This document shows, one piece after another, positions 32,558 through 49,261 of a DNA stretch of 64,000 bases; position 1 is the first letter of the stretch, and each line of letters begins with the position of its first letter. A program made the translations under genes and the position numbers. Where the stretch lies: positions 5,813,299-5,877,298 of the forward strand of contig NZ_CP051167.1 in assembly GCF_012295525.1 (NCBI RefSeq). The letters are read 5' to 3'. Below the pieces are notes generated by a model. It was not told where the DNA came from. It worked only from the letters and a program-made list of their open reading frames with translations, and ran no database searches. This DNA comes from Oxynema aestuarii AP17 (GTDB lineage Bacteria; Cyanobacteriota; Cyanobacteriia; Cyanobacteriales; Laspinemataceae).

Positions 32558-32843
32558 TTGCGGTTTGAGTATACAAATAGCTTTCCGATCGCTCGGCGGT
32601 GGTTTCGATCCCTCGGGGGCGATCGGACGGTAACGAGCGATCGCCCCCGAGGGTAAAGATATCACTTAGAACTAAAAAGAGGATGACCTGTCGGAATGTG
32701 CTGAACATTATCCCCTCAACGGCTCCTCGCAGGGCGAAATCTTTCAGTTCGAGGAAGGCGACGCACCCGAGCTAGCAAACCTCGATTTTTCTTAACCTTA
32801 TTGTAAAGATTTTCGGAGGCGATCGCCCGTCCCTGCTCCGATC

Positions 32844-45401: not shown

Positions 45402-46412
45402 ATGGAAAGTTTACAGTATTTTTTGCCTCAAGTTTGGTTTGCGATTCTCGCCTTATTTCTGTTCCTGTACGTGATGCTCGACGGTTTCGATCTCGGCGTG
45501 GGGATTTTGTCGATTACCTCGTCCGACGAGGAACGCCGAGGGATTTTGATGACCAGTTTGAGCAATGTTTGGGATGCTAACGAGACTTGGTTGGTGTTGA
45601 TGGGGGGTGCGTTGTTCGGTGCGTTTCCGTTGGCGTACAGCACGATTCTCAATGCGTTGTATATCCCGATCTTTATGATGATTTTCGGGTTTATTTTTCG
45701 CGCCGTAGCGTTCGAGTTTCGCGAGCATTCCAATCGCAAGTTTTTCTGGAATTATGCGTTTGGCGTCGGCAGTTTTCTCGCCGCTTTAGGTCAGGGATTT
45801 GCCCTCGGCGGTGTTTTGGCGGGGATTAAGGTCGATGAAAACGGCCATTTTATCGGTTCGACCTTGGACTGGTTGAATTTGCCGTCGCTGTTAGTGGCGT
45901 TGACGTTGATTCAGGGGTACGTGTTAATTGGTTCGACGTATTTGATTATGAAGACCGAGGGGGATTTGCAAAAAACTCACTATCGCACGGCGAAATTGGC
46001 GGCGGCGACGACGTTATTGGGGGCGATTTTGATTACGATCGCCACTCCGATTTTTTACGAGTCGGCGCGATCGCGTTTGTTTGACGTGCCGCAAGTGTAC
46101 TTTTTTGGCGCCTTGCCTCTGGTGGGAGTGTTGCTGGTGGGCTTGTTGTGGCGCAGTCTCTCTCGGCAGGAAGAACGGGGGCCGTTTATTTGGACGATCG
46201 GAATTTTTCTGCTAACTTTTTTGGGGTTGGCGGCGATCGTTTTTCCGTACATTATTCCGATGCAGATCACGATTTATGAGGGTTCGGCTTCGGCGAGTTC
46301 TCTGGTGTTTATGTTGGTGTTTATCGGGTTTTTAATTCCGATTATGCTGGCGTACAATATCTATCAATATGTGGTCTTCCGAGGGAAGGTGACGGGGGAT
46401 GGTTACGGTTAA
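45402..46412 (+). CDS. cydB: cytochrome bd ubiquinol oxidase subunit II
   Basis: The N-terminus LPQVWFAILALFLFLYVMLDGFDLGVGIL is typical of CydB. The gene lies 16 bp after cydA. Confidence 0.9.
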   Translation: MESLQYFLPQVWFAILALFLFLYVMLDGFDLGVGILSITSSDEERRGILMTSLSNVWDANETWLVLMGGALFGAFPLAYSTILNALYIPIFMMIFGFIFRAVAFEFREHSNRKFFWNYAFGVGSFLAALGQGFALGGVLAGIKVDENGHFIGSTLDWLNLPSLLVALTLIQGYVLIGSTYLIMKTEGDLQKTHYRTAKLAAATTLLGAILITIATPIFYESARSRLFDVPQVYFFGALPLVGVLLVGLLWRSLSRQEERGPFIWTIGIFLLTFLGLAAIVFPYIIPMQITIYEGSASASSLVFMLVFIGFLIPIMLAYNIYQYVVFRGKVTGDGYG

Positions 46413-46472
46413 GTTGGGTTGAGGGGGCGGCGATCGTTCGTGAAGGGCGATCGGGTGACCTCTTTTTACCCT

Positions 46473-46510
46473 GTAGGGACACAGCACTGCTGTGTCCCTA
46501 CTTATTGTTG
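46473..46510 (+). terminator. rho-independent terminator of cydAB
   Basis: The hairpin gtagggacacagc-a-ctgctgtgtccctac has a 13-bp stem. It is followed by ttattgttg. Confidence 0.7.
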
Positions 46511-46667
46511 TAAATTCAATGAATCCCGGCAACGGGATTGAAACTCCTGTATCTTCGATTCCCAACCCAGCACCCCATTGCCGCCACTTCAATCTATCCG
46601 GGCAACGGGATCGAAACAAAATGCTCAATAATAGAGACGGTCCTCTCTAGGGCAACGGGATCGAAAC
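46507..46667 (+). repeat. three copies of a CRISPR-repeat-like motif (CCSGGCAACGGGAT[TC]GAAAC). Only the first is full length (gttgtaaattcaatgaatcccggcaacgggattgaaac)
   Basis: The motif has a stem CCCGG-caa-CGGG followed by an ATTGAAAC 3' handle. Starts are at 46525, 46598 and 46648. The spacing between the first two is 75 bp, a typical CRISPR unit length. The second copy aligns to the first over about 35 nt at roughly 70% identity. Confidence 0.35.
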
Positions 46668-46699
46668 AAAATGCTCAATAATAGAGACGGTCCTCTCTA
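46600..46699 (+). repeat. perfect 50-bp tandem duplication (gggcaacgggatcgaaacaaaatgctcaataatagagacggtcctctcta x2)
   Basis: Copies lie at 46600..46649 and 46650..46699. Each contains an ATG. The first ATG runs into a stop codon. The second opens the 46671 ORF. Confidence 0.85.
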
Positions 46700-46718
46700 T
46701 CGTCCGCATCCAACACCG

Positions 46719-48026
46719 ATGAGCGAAAGGCACGATCGCCACGAACCCAACCGACCCGAGACCGAACCGTCAAAATCCCTCGGCAAAGACTCCCTCAACC
46801 GCCTCAGCAGCCTCTGGAACCAAGCCACGGCGCGGCTGAAGCAGTCCCTGCCGATCGATCGCGCCGCCCAAACCGTGGTCAATTGGTTTAACGTCAGCGA
46901 CGATCGCGTGGCGGAAATTCTAGAAGCGGTTCGCGCCGAACTCCCCACCACCGAAGCCCTGTTAATCGGCAAACCCCAAGCGGGGAAAAGCTCGATCGTG
47001 CGCGGTCTGACTGGGGTTTCGGCGGCGATCGTCGGCCAGGGGTTTCGCCCCCACACCCAAAATACCCAACGCTACGCCTATCCTTCCGAAGACCTGCCCT
47101 TACTGATTTTTACCGATACCGTCGGACTCGGCGACGCCAATCGAGACACCCAGGCGATCGTCGAGGAGTTGGCCGCCGACCTACAAAAAGAGCAAGGACG
47201 TGCCAAAATCTTGATTTTAACGGTGAAAATTAACGATTTCGCCACGGAAACCCTGCGAACGGTGGCGGAACAACTACGATCGCGCTATCCAGACGTTCCT
47301 TGCTTGCTGGCGGTCACCTGCTTGCACGAGGTTTACCCGCCCCACACCGCCGACCACCCGGACTATCCCCCCGATTTCGAGGAGCTCCAACGGGCGTTCG
47401 AGCACTTACAAGGGGCATTCGCGCCGTTGTGCGATCGGGCCGTGGCGATCGATTTCACCTTAGAAGAAGATGACTATACTCCCGTGTTCTACGGCCTGGA
47501 AACATTGCGAGATACTCTAGCCGAACTGCTCCCCGAAGCCGAAGCCCGCGCCATTTACGAATTACTCGACGAAAAAGCCGGAAAACAACTGGGTGATTTA
47601 TACAGAGACGTGGGACGCCGTTATATTTTAGCCTTCGCGATCGCGGCGGCGACCTTGGCGGCGGTTCCCCTGCCCTTCGCCACGATGCCCGTCCTGACCG
47701 CCTTACAGGTGTCGATGGTCGGACTCCTCGGGCGTTTGTACGGCCAAACCCTCAGCCCTTCCCAAGCGGGGGGCGTGGTCAGCGCGATCGCGGGGGGTTT
47801 TCTCGCACAAGTCATCGGACGCGAATTGATCAAATTTATCCCCATTCTGGGCAGCGCGATCGCCGCCTCCTGGGCCGCCGCTTATACATGGGCTCTCGGC
47901 GAAGGCGCTTGCGTCTATTTCGGCGATCTCATGGGCGGCAAAAAACCCGACCCCGAAAAAATTCAAGCCGCTATGAAAGAAGCTTTTGAAGCCGCCAAAG
48001 AACGATTTAAAGGCATCGAACGCTAA
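46719..48026 (+). CDS. small-GTPase-domain protein with a C-terminal DUF697-like membrane domain
   Basis: The P-loop LIGKPQAGKSSIVRGLTG and the G3 motif FTDTVGLGD are present. The C-terminus has hydrophobic helices ILAFAIAAATLAAVPLPFA...FIPILGSAIAASWAAAYTWALG. The start is ambiguous between 46671 and 46719. Confidence 0.65.
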   Translation: MSERHDRHEPNRPETEPSKSLGKDSLNRLSSLWNQATARLKQSLPIDRAAQTVVNWFNVSDDRVAEILEAVRAELPTTEALLIGKPQAGKSSIVRGLTGVSAAIVGQGFRPHTQNTQRYAYPSEDLPLLIFTDTVGLGDANRDTQAIVEELAADLQKEQGRAKILILTVKINDFATETLRTVAEQLRSRYPDVPCLLAVTCLHEVYPPHTADHPDYPPDFEELQRAFEHLQGAFAPLCDRAVAIDFTLEEDDYTPVFYGLETLRDTLAELLPEAEARAIYELLDEKAGKQLGDLYRDVGRRYILAFAIAAATLAAVPLPFATMPVLTALQVSMVGLLGRLYGQTLSPSQAGGVVSAIAGGFLAQVIGRELIKFIPILGSAIAASWAAAYTWALGEGACVYFGDLMGGKKPDPEKIQAAMKEAFEAAKERFKGIER

Positions 48027-48130: not shown

Positions 48131-49261
48131 ATGATTCACAGCTTGCTCGATACGAGGACAACAAACTTTGGCGATCTAATAAGCAATGGTAAAATCTACC
48201 GAGTTCCTCCATTTCAAAGAGATTACTCGTGGAATGAAGAAAATTGGGAAGATCTTTGGCAAGATATAGAAAGTTTATTAACCGAACAAACCCCCATTCA
48301 TTATATGGGTGCGATCGTCCTTCAAAGTTCTCTAGAATCGGACAAATATTTTACCATCATTGACGGTCAACAACGGTTGGCTACTCTCAGTATTTTAGCA
48401 ACGGTTGTCATCGATCGATTAGAGACCTTAATTGCCAACGATATCGATCCGGAAGCCAATCGAGAAAGACAAGAAATTTTAAGACGAACTTATTTAGGAG
48501 ATAAAGATCCTCGTTCTCTCCGCTATTCTAGTAAACTCATTTTAAACAACAACAATAATGATTTTTATAAAAGTAATTTAATTAACCTTAGAGAACCTCG
48601 AAATATTCGTAAACTTACAAAATCCAATCAACTGTTGTGGAAAGCTTTTGAATATTTCCGCGATCGCCTCAACTCGTTGACGGATATCATTCAGTTTGGC
48701 GATCGCCTTGCAGCATTTTTAGCCGATACGAATGAATTAGAAAGGATTTACAATCAAGTTGCTATTGATATTGATTCACAACAAATCGATCGCCCCCGGG
48801 AAGTTTTTGAGAAATTACGTCCGGTTTATGTGAGCGATGAAAAATTTGAACGTGATTTTTCTGTATTGAAGATTGAAACTAAGGGACAAAAGAAAAAGCT
48901 AGTTCGCTATATTTTGGCAAAACTTGAAAATTATGTATCGGGCAAACCCATTAATGAGGAAACTCCATCTATAGAACATATTTTACCAGAATCACCCGAT
49001 CGTCAATGGGAACAAGAGTTTACAAACGAACAGATGGCTGACATGCGTTATCGCCTCGGTAATCTTACTTTTTTAGAGCCTTCTTTCAATCGAGAAATTG
49101 GCCAAAAGAAATACGATATAAAACGACAAAAATATCAACAAAGTAGTTACATTTTGACGCAACAAATTACTAATGATGATTGGACTCCCGATTCGATCGC
49201 GCGCCGCCAACAGGAGTTAGCTAGACAAGCCATTCGTGTTTGGAGATCGGATTTTGTATGA
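48131..49261 (+). CDS. DUF262 + DUF1524 (GmrSD-like ParB/HNH-type nuclease family) protein
   Basis: The DUF262 motif IIDGQQRLATLSILA is present. The C-terminal His-Me-like motif IEHILPESPD...LGNLTFLE is present. GC is markedly lower than in the neighbours. ATG at 48131 (the annotated TTG is at 48086). Confidence 0.7.
   Translation: MIHSLLDTRTTNFGDLISNGKIYRVPPFQRDYSWNEENWEDLWQDIESLLTEQTPIHYMGAIVLQSSLESDKYFTIIDGQQRLATLSILATVVIDRLETLIANDIDPEANRERQEILRRTYLGDKDPRSLRYSSKLILNNNNNDFYKSNLINLREPRNIRKLTKSNQLLWKAFEYFRDRLNSLTDIIQFGDRLAAFLADTNELERIYNQVAIDIDSQQIDRPREVFEKLRPVYVSDEKFERDFSVLKIETKGQKKKLVRYILAKLENYVSGKPINEETPSIEHILPESPDRQWEQEFTNEQMADMRYRLGNLTFLEPSFNREIGQKKYDIKRQKYQQSSYILTQQITNDDWTPDSIARRQQELARQAIRVWRSDFV

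Follow-up and report, generated by a model that had tools for sequence, protein, structure and literature searches.

Type I-D CRISPR-Cas systems, of which CRISPR1 of Synechocystis is an example, are composed of cas3, cas10d, csc2/cas7d, csc1/cas5d, cas6, cas4, cas1 and cas2. Their repeats measure 37 nt and combine a GC-rich hairpin with an 8-nt handle ending in GAAAC. In filamentous cyanobacteria, satellite arrays free of cas genes and the fragmentation of arrays are typical (Reimann et al. 2020, bioRxiv 10.1101/2020.04.14.041012; also Hou et al. 2019, as cited therein). The contraction of arrays by spacer deletion and the degeneracy of their terminal repeats are well described (reviewed in Garrett 2021, PMC8047081). 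Moreover, two degenerate repeats flanking one spacer characterise the mini-arrays of crRNA-like regulators, CreTA and CreR (Shmakov et al. 2023, bioRxiv 10.1101/2023.03.03.530964; PMC9458426). Viral solitary repeat units, or RNA anti-CRISPRs (Racr), are borne by phages or plasmids and possess their own promoter.

The window analysed here is the whole 64-kb stretch of the chromosome of Oxynema aestuarii AP17, and the repeats that it carries between cydB and a GTPase gene are very probably the collapsed stub of a satellite type I-D array. Comparative data document the stub well as an ordinary fossil of such an array, of a kind already known, and it leaves the knowledge of CRISPR biology unchanged. 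It shares with the orphan or satellite arrays the state of a cas-free repeat-spacer locus far from its cognate cas genes in a multicellular cyanobacterium. Additionally, its repeat is shared with a cas-linked array, as is the leader at the same site in a relative. It differs from them in being down to one spacer and in having lost its leader. The repeat resembles those of type I-D systems in architecture, with a stable hairpin in repeat 1 and none in the terminal repeat, but the window holds an array remnant only and none of their proteins. A search of the published literature on Oxynema aestuarii and CRISPR gave nothing useful. The locus is chromosomal and syntenic in at least five Oxynema assemblies, and its features are as follows; L111 is a relative that is described below.

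46412: end of the cydB open reading frame.
46473 to 46501, + strand: cydAB hairpin resembling an intrinsic terminator (13-bp stem, dG -24.5 kcal/mol, z -7.3), then a T-rich tail.
46507 to 46544, + strand: repeat 1, GTTGTAAATTCAATGAATCCCGGCAACGGGATTGAAAC, a chimera directly 3' of the terminator-like hairpin.
46507 to 46519, + strand: 5' part of repeat 1, GTTGTAAATTCAA, native flank that lies upstream of the leader in L111.
46520 to 46544, + strand: 3' part of repeat 1, TGAATCCCGGCAACGGGATTGAAAC, the 3' 25 nt of the canonical type I-D repeat.
46545 to 46580, + strand: sole remaining spacer, 36 nt (39 nt if counted to 46584, where homology to L111 resumes).
46581 to 46617, + strand: degenerate terminal (trailer-end) repeat, CCGCCACTTCAATCTATCCGGGCAACGGGATCGAAAC, matching the canonical repeat at 29/37 positions.
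46600 to 46649, + strand: copy 1 of a 50-bp duplication, comprising the last 18 nt of the terminal repeat and 32 nt of 5' UTR with a TAGAGA-CGGTCC-TCTCTA hairpin.
46621 to 46650, + strand: upstream open reading frame of nine codons (MLNNRDGPL, then a stop), created by the duplication, as read from the sequence.
46650 to 46699, + strand: copy 2 of the duplication, of which 46650 to 46667 form a partial third repeat.
46668 to 46718, + strand: 51-nt segment from the terminal repeat to the supported start codon, invariant in all relatives; it probably serves the GTPase gene as 5' UTR or core promoter.
46719 to 48026, + strand: GTPase coding sequence (MMR_HSR1 and DUF697), MSERHD..., from Pfam and the N-termini of homologues.

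An earlier reading of the letters alone (hereafter the sequence-only reading) had described a CRISPR-like repeat of 38 nt abutting the cydAB terminator, a degenerate copy 75 bp later and a partial third copy. The repeat and its position directly behind the hairpin hold, and so does the degenerate copy, which in its best 41-nt register (46577 to 46617) is 78% identical to repeat 1; the spacing is wrong, as the two start 73 nt apart. The third copy is present as well, reduced to the last 18 nt (GGGCAACGGGATCGAAAC) without the 5' arm of the hairpin and situated inside the second duplication unit. A 17-nt core, GGCAACGGGATYGAAAC, occurs three times, against 0.04 occurrences expected by chance. At gathering thresholds, Rfam gave no match in the window. 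A permissive scan of 46400 to 46760 returned 10 sub-threshold matches, all to CRISPR-DR families and all within 46506 to 46545; four of them span exactly 46507 to 46544, and the best is DR18 (25.3 bits, E 0.029, gathering score 50). The 3' 25 nt of repeat 1 contain an intact 7-bp hairpin with a GCAA loop and the 8-nt ATTGAAAC handle, and the whole repeat folds with a total dG of -11.8 kcal/mol (z -3.0). The terminal repeat departs from the canonical one in, among others, a mismatched stem pair and a handle in which a U is replaced by C, and its fold (dG -6.6 kcal/mol, z 0) is no better than that of shuffled sequence. In terms of the generic definition of a CRISPR array (at least two direct repeats of 23 to 55 nt with unique spacers of similar length), the locus offers the minimum of two repeats and one 36-nt spacer. 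No CRISPR leader is left between the terminator-like hairpin and repeat 1. A sigma-70-like promoter was found nowhere on the + strand of 46350 to 46800, and so none for the GTPase gene either. A second GGGATCGAAAC, near 32602 on the - strand, has no similarity to the repeat beyond that 11-mer; it adjoins a GC-rich hairpin containing GCGATCGC.

The repeat belongs to a widespread family. Exact matches to ATCCSGGCAACGGGATYGAAAC, sought in one genome per species with the window's own genome not included, fell into 97 blocks, many of which are long arrays with a spacing of 72-75 nt. In many cyanobacteria a 22-nt core is repeated in arrays, with as many as 101 copies in one 8-kb block, and long arrays were found in Oscillatoria, Coleofasciculus, Rivularia, Lyngbya, Aerosakkonema, Phormidium and others. 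The consensus nearest to the window copy is that of Phormidium sp. CCY1219, CTTTCAATTCAATGAATCCCGGCAACGGGATTGAAAC, with 34/37 positions matching; the array repeat of the sister genome described below (L118) likewise agrees with repeat 1 at 34/37 positions. In that genome (L091), Pfam places Csc2, Cas6, Cas4 and Cas1 upstream of the CTTTCAATTCAATGAATCCCGGCAACGGGATTGAAAC array, which identifies the cassette as type I-D, and over 88 nt its cas-adjacent leader shares 84% identity with that of L111. By eye, the L111 leader is also close to those of two further loci, L114 and L118, and arrays of CTTTCAATTCAATGAATCCCGGCAACGGGATTGAAAC adjoin type I-D cas operons in L091, L114 and L118. The repeat family of the window is type I-D. 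The expectation that the repeat recurs elsewhere in intact arrays with cas genes was borne out in a sister genome (L118), and long arrays of the repeat occur in many filamentous cyanobacteria.

The origin of the stub is best seen in its relatives (L098 and L107-L112), whose loci were retrieved by exact-protein look-ups. L111 (JGI 3300040801) is 97.0% identical to the window in cydB and 97.3% in the GTPase gene, and its cydB-GTPase intergenic region measures 1.74 kb. It contains, in order, the same terminator as the window, GTTGTAGGTTCAA, a leader of ~360 nt, 16 repeats, the terminal repeat and the GTPase gene. The 16 repeats are identical to CTTTCAATTCAATGAATCCCGGCAACGGGATTGAAAC except for a single A-to-G change in one, and the 16 spacers are all unique and 22-46 nt long. 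The array ends in CCACTTCAATCTATCCGGGCAACGGGATCGAAAC, then AAAATGCTCAATAATAGAG... into the GTPase gene, and is identical to the window from the terminal repeat on. L112, from a sister sample of L111, has the same array end, so that an identical 34 nt of terminal repeat closes both the 16-unit array of L111 and that of L112. Moreover, the array and the GTPase gene of L111 are co-oriented, with no terminator between them. These loci show that the cydB-GTPase intergenic region was ancestrally a leader and array transcribed in the direction of the flanking genes, and that a degenerate terminal repeat closed the array immediately before the GTPase gene. The sequence-only reading had taken the structure for the decayed trailer of a CRISPR array, and the orthologous site of L111, with a full array ending in the same degenerate repeat, bears this out: owing to the synteny and the identical terminal repeat and downstream sequence, the window structure is read as the remains of an L111-type array. 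The window spacer is absent from L111, whose last spacer has an odd length of 22 nt. This indicates further deletions in each lineage, and L111 is therefore no direct ancestor. A diverged copy of the window spacer and terminal repeat lies in L110 behind a different upstream gene, which indicates that the trailer end is old.

The path from array to stub can be read from the junction. In the window, GTTGTAAATTCAA is joined to TGAATCCC (in a longer read-out, GTTGTAAATTCAA followed by TGAATCCCGG...). In L111, the flank reads GTTGTAGGTTCAA and then CGGG.. of the leader (CGGGTTGAG), while the repeat reads CTTTCAATTCAA and then TGAATCCC / TGAATCCCGG. The junction bears a 5-nt microhomology, TTCAA (46515 to 46519). 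A single deletion would have run from the TTCAA just after the cydAB terminator to the TTCAA within a repeat. It would have taken away the leader with its promoter and every repeat-spacer unit except the last, so that only a chimeric repeat, a single spacer and the terminal repeat were left. Such a deletion accounts for the departure of repeat 1 from the consensus in its 5' third and for its perfect 3' 25 nt. The identical junction is found in CENA135 (L108), L109 and L098, whereas L107 starts downstream of it; the deletion must therefore be older than ~4% nucleotide divergence. As in known array contraction, spacers were lost by deletion, and the trailer-end repeat is the most degenerate and was kept while the internal units vanished. 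The difference is that the deletion joins a non-repeat flank to a repeat and is not a repeat-to-repeat recombination, as a result of which the leader was removed too and the first repeat became chimeric. Arrays can thus collapse through a microhomology deletion that takes the leader as well, and the degenerate terminal repeat outlasts its array.

The sequence-only reading had seen no cas genes around the repeats and suggested that the cas locus was lost. The former is right: the 64-kb window holds no cas genes, six I-D proteins used as tblastn queries had no match below E 0.5 there, and Pfam calls over ±10 kb around the stub include no cas. The latter is contradicted by a sister genome, a 6.31-Mb JGI contig (Ga0573901_01) on which the window-like locus L098 lies at 4.43-4.45 Mb and is 99.6-99.9% identical to the window. 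At 2.92-2.94 Mb of the same contig (L118), a complete cas3-cas10d-csc2-csc1-cas6-cas4-cas1-cas2 operon is accompanied by a homologous leader and an array of 45 exact repeats and two variants with 46 spacers of 33-46 nt. The cas operon lies ~1.5 Mb from the stub. L114, found through its Cas6 (P0129) in the metagenome shared with L111, likewise has the complete cas3-cas10d-csc2-csc1-cas6-cas4-cas1-cas2 operon, followed by 55 repeat copies. Furthermore, Cas10d, Csc2, Cas6 and Cas1d of O. aestuarii AP17 itself (QIZ69864, QIZ69865, QIZ69867 and QIZ69868) fall within the 90% clusters of the P0129-operon proteins. These clusters also hold proteins of the 6.31-Mb contig, and the NCBI names in them are type I-D Cas10d/Csc3, Cas7/Csc2 and Cas1d. 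The look-up of the AP17 Cas6 (P0367) gave no exact-sequence record. A loss of cas genes had also been hinted at by the lack of Oxynema names in the top 120 Cas6 and Csc2 matches; this was wrong, as the cluster look-up and L118 show the operon, and the names are missing because cluster representatives hide those of their members. As the cognate cas genes persist ~1.5 Mb away, together with a large array that looks active, what the stub records is the fragmentation and contraction of an array and not a loss of cas. The lack of cas genes nearby tells nothing about the rest of a genome.

As the genome retains an active-looking type I-D system, the stub is perhaps not inert. It could be a working one-spacer CRISPR locus, in which read-through from cydAB or a cryptic promoter supplies a transcript, Cas6 cuts it within repeat 1, perhaps within the terminal repeat too, and the crRNA arms Cascade. 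The complete I-D system would provide the enzymes, and the 3' 25 nt of repeat 1, hairpin and ATTGAAAC handle included, are identical to the resident array repeat, so that cleavage by the resident Cas6 is possible if repeat 1 is transcribed. Orphan arrays of Anabaena are expressed and are processed by remote Cas6 enzymes (bioRxiv 10.1101/2020.04.14.041012). In addition, the spacer and terminal repeat are unchanged between the window and CENA135. These points are set against the deletion of leader and promoter (the leader of L111, L114 and L118 is absent in the window), the strong terminator that abuts repeat 1 and the poor fold of the terminal repeat. Moreover, CENA135 differs from the window at three positions of repeat 1 (a stem base and the first loop base of the hairpin, and one position outside it), and in L110 repeat 1 is missing altogether. 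No protospacer came to light either. Searches of the spacer against phages and plasmids gave chance-level matches only, with E of 2 or more; an exact 22-mer scan of IMG/VR gave no match, and the best gapless match within the window, 23/36, equals the 95th percentile of shuffled spacers (23). The 16 spacers of L111 matched nothing in phages and, in plasmids, only another CRISPR array. A working locus is accordingly considered unlikely, and in contrast to the Anabaena arrays the stub is most likely inactive; we infer that its inactivity is complete.

The comparison of strains shows where constraint lies. The spacer is identical in L098, L107, L108 and L109. Between the window and CENA135, 8/132 positions are substituted upstream of the spacer, against 0/124 in the spacer, terminal repeat and UTR (Fisher p = 0.0045), a pattern that hints at constraint beyond the UTR. 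In L110, 9/60 positions have diverged in the spacer and terminal repeat, the stem of the latter having changed from CGGG to CGCC, and the 51-nt UTR is unchanged. Not one base of this segment is substituted in L108, L110 or L111, which are ~97% identical to the window in the coding sequence, and together with the last 8 nt of the terminal repeat it is invariant across lineages. The stub itself is drifting, as shown by the hairpin of repeat 1 that is already broken in CENA135. The invariance probably reflects selection on the 5' UTR or promoter of the GTPase gene and not on CRISPR function.

The same conservation bears on the suggestion of the sequence-only reading that a repeat was captured as a 5' leader. 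In that case the GTPase gene would have recruited the remains of the repeats as its regulatory leader, serving either as a Cas6 site that matures the 5' end of the mRNA or as a CreA/CreR-type mini-array through which Cascade represses a promoter, and the 50-bp duplication would alter the dosage of that element. The part that stands is the position of the terminal repeat just upstream of the invariant 51-nt UTR, which fits with the invariance of its last 8 nt, with the co-orientation of array and GTPase gene in L111 and with the existence of regulatory mini-arrays (bioRxiv 10.1101/2023.03.03.530964; PMC9458426). The part that does not stand is conservation of the repeat hairpins: it is the UTR that is conserved among strains, not the hairpin, and the third copy lacks its 5' arm. 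The likeness to CreA/CreR mini-arrays ends with the two repeats and one spacer. The stub lies neither in nor next to a cas locus, but ~1.5 Mb from it; no partially complementary promoter is nearby, the best spacer match of 23/36 being at shuffle level; the pseudo-repeats are unconserved; and comparative data derive the stub from the collapse of a normal array. It also differs from viral solitary repeat units/Racr, being chromosomal and with no promoter-like site found on the + strand. Such a regulatory role is very unlikely. The narrower idea that Cas6 cuts repeat 1 or the terminal repeat in transcripts entering the GTPase gene, yielding an orphan crRNA and a processed mRNA 5' end, is also improbable. 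If true, it would make the locus a natural CRISPR trailer exapted as an mRNA leader, which the 50-bp duplication would alter.

A very recent event at the collapsed array is that duplication. The sequence-only reading was correct in calling it perfect: Tandem Repeats Finder and a repeat finder both gave 100% identical units (46600 to 46649 and 46650 to 46699) in exactly 2.0 copies. It is present in the window and L098 only and absent from L107, L108, L109, L110, L111 and L112. As L109 lacks it in spite of being 100% identical to the window in cydB and 99.5% in the GTPase gene, the duplication is very recent and arose in the window's clone. An assembly artefact might be suspected, as mis-assembly or polishing errors can yield short exact tandem duplications. 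However, both the window and JGI Ga0573901_01 show the duplication, and these two assemblies are set apart by SNPs; moreover, a Logan contig (L099, SRR35642146) begins at 46670, the point at which such a repeat would be expected to break a de Bruijn graph with k=31. An artefact is extremely unlikely. The junction of the duplication has no microhomology, and replication template switching near the two hairpins is the favoured mechanism, which would probably account for it. Two other sources were rejected. Integration by Cas1-Cas2 does not suit a unit of 50 bp, which is not repeat plus spacer, nor the fact that no new DNA was inserted. Recombination between two TCTATC motifs would yield a period of 53 bp. 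The locus is a clean natural example: among strains of 96-100% identity, a single chromosomal site carries the full satellite array, a stub reduced to one spacer, or such a stub with a newly arisen duplication.

The duplication also duplicates an ATG. According to the sequence-only reading, the first copy runs into a stop and the second opens the GTPase reading frame. Both statements hold, as ATG 46621 meets TAG at 46648 to 46650 and ATG 46671 opens a 451-aa frame with MMR_HSR1 and DUF697; as a real start codon, the latter is probably to be replaced by ATG 46719, which is codon 17 of that frame. Homologues from other genera have the N-termini MTEQR..., MTEEH... and MSEKR..., which align with MSERHD at codon 17, and this makes ATG 46719 the most likely true start. 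The 451-aa protein is identical to WP_375339321.1 of O. aestuarii, and the GenBank protein of AP17, QIZ73906.1 (435 aa), corresponds to its residues 17-451. With a start at 46719, the duplicated ATG becomes a feature of the UTR. Where the duplication is lacking, the whole relic contains no stop in the frame of the gene, which gives rise to gene-caller models of 485 and 517 aa. The window's clone tolerates the 50-nt frameshift, which speaks against translation of the upstream frame into the protein. The duplication would therefore add only the nine-codon upstream frame and a second TAGAGA-CGGTCC-TCTCTA hairpin and leave the real coding sequence untouched. In practice, relic stubs mislead gene callers, as the 451-, 485- and 517-aa models of the GTPase all begin inside the relic.

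A separate observation was made during the genome scan. Oscillatoria sp. PCC 10802 and O. princeps contain ~30 dispersed units of ~112 nt each. Every unit has a conserved block with the extended -10-like TGCGATAAT; ~50 nt past it, the genomes' own I-D repeat follows with its final 28 nt (AGCTGAATCCCGGCAACGGGATTGAAAC), and then unrelated sequence. The units are not derived from the leader, have no covarying structure besides the repeat hairpin and no consistent downstream gene, and were not found in IMG/VR or the window. They look like stand-alone modules of a promoter plus a Cas6 site, and may be of more interest than the stub.

Several annotated gene models of the GTPase gene that follows the CRISPR relic begin within the relic itself, as listed below.

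Window 46671-46718: model start inside the CRISPR relic
L109:3001: model start inside the relic, related locus
L110:1413: model start inside the relic, related locus

These models predict products of 451 aa (RefSeq and JGI), 485 aa (L109), and 517 aa (L110), the 485-aa model beginning at an ATG within repeat 1. Homologues point to a GTPase of 435 aa starting at 46719. The 451-, 485-, and 517-aa models are likely start-codon mis-annotations.

The related Oxynema contig L111 carries a full array at the same site, and its last spacer is unusually short.

L111:2894-2915: last spacer of the full array, 22 nt

The other spacers of this array are 34-46 nt in length. Owing to its 22-nt size and its dissimilarity to the last spacer of the window, a further deletion within the array, near its trailer end, is implied for the L111 lineage. 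A deletion has also been found downstream of the GTPase gene, in the window itself.

Window 48131-49261: GmrSD-family gene, deletion junction at 48731

Compared with the sister-genome contig L098, the Logan contig L099, and the CENA135 locus L108, this gene features an internal in-frame deletion of 567 bp (189 codons), with a microhomology of 1 nt at the junction, and encodes 376 aa instead of 565-590 aa. Both GmrSD_N and GmrSD_C are still detected by Pfam in the shortened protein. Additionally, a repetitive region lies at the window end.

Window 62528-64000, continuing past the window end: large nested tandem-repeat region

It is made up of palindromic modules CCCCCCTT..AAGGGGGG, shows nested periods of 105, 177, 282, and 459 nt with an identity of 97-99%, and overlaps a long minus-strand ORF (61315-63957).

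The repeat core also occurs in other sequences.

L113:2180-2410: small array on the predicted viral contig IMGVR_UViG_3300036939_000063 (33.8 kb)
L020:555-576: single exact match to the 22-nt core, Actinomycetes MAG
L031:2137-2158: single exact match to the 22-nt core, Mesorhizobium microcysteis

The small array consists of three full repeats with the core of the window repeat (CTTTCACATTAATGAATCCCGGCAACGGGATTGAAAC) and a truncated fourth; either a mini-array carried by the virus or a piece of host DNA within the viral bin may account for it. The two single matches, around which no repeat-like flanks were found, are probably due to chance, as about one match is expected for the pattern. Mesorhizobium microcysteis is an associate of cyanobacterial blooms.

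Outside the window, some 30 scattered units, each approximately 112 nt long, were observed in Oscillatoria sp. PCC 10802, in the O. princeps MAG RMCB-10, and in related Oscillatoria.

L001, L011, L014, L015, L017, L018, L023, L029, L033, L036-L038: dispersed units
L041, L042, L048 (three copies), L051, L060, L061, L071 (two copies): dispersed units
L073, L074, L076, L079, L081, L084-L086, L090, L094, L106: dispersed units
L090:3753-3867 (+): example

The unit sequence is GGGAGCATCCCG..TGCAAAGAAGCC.AAAT.AATGCGATAATGATTTCAGCAGGCGGCAGGAGAAGAATATTTTTGGCCAGCTGAATCCCGGCAACGGGATTGAAAC, in which an extended -10-like box (TGCGATAAT) is followed, after about 50 nt, by the final 28 nt of the type I-D repeat that the host itself carries, comprising its hairpin and 8-nt handle, and then by unrelated sequence. 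Some units are arranged in tandem with periods of 120-266 nt, and several occupy orthologous sites common to PCC 10802 and RMCB-10. The units do not derive from a leader. Neither covarying structure other than the repeat hairpin nor a consistent downstream gene was found for the units, and none was found in IMG/VR. They are possibly stand-alone crRNA-like or Cas6-processed transcription units; more speculatively, they might be an element converting its own flank into a guide.
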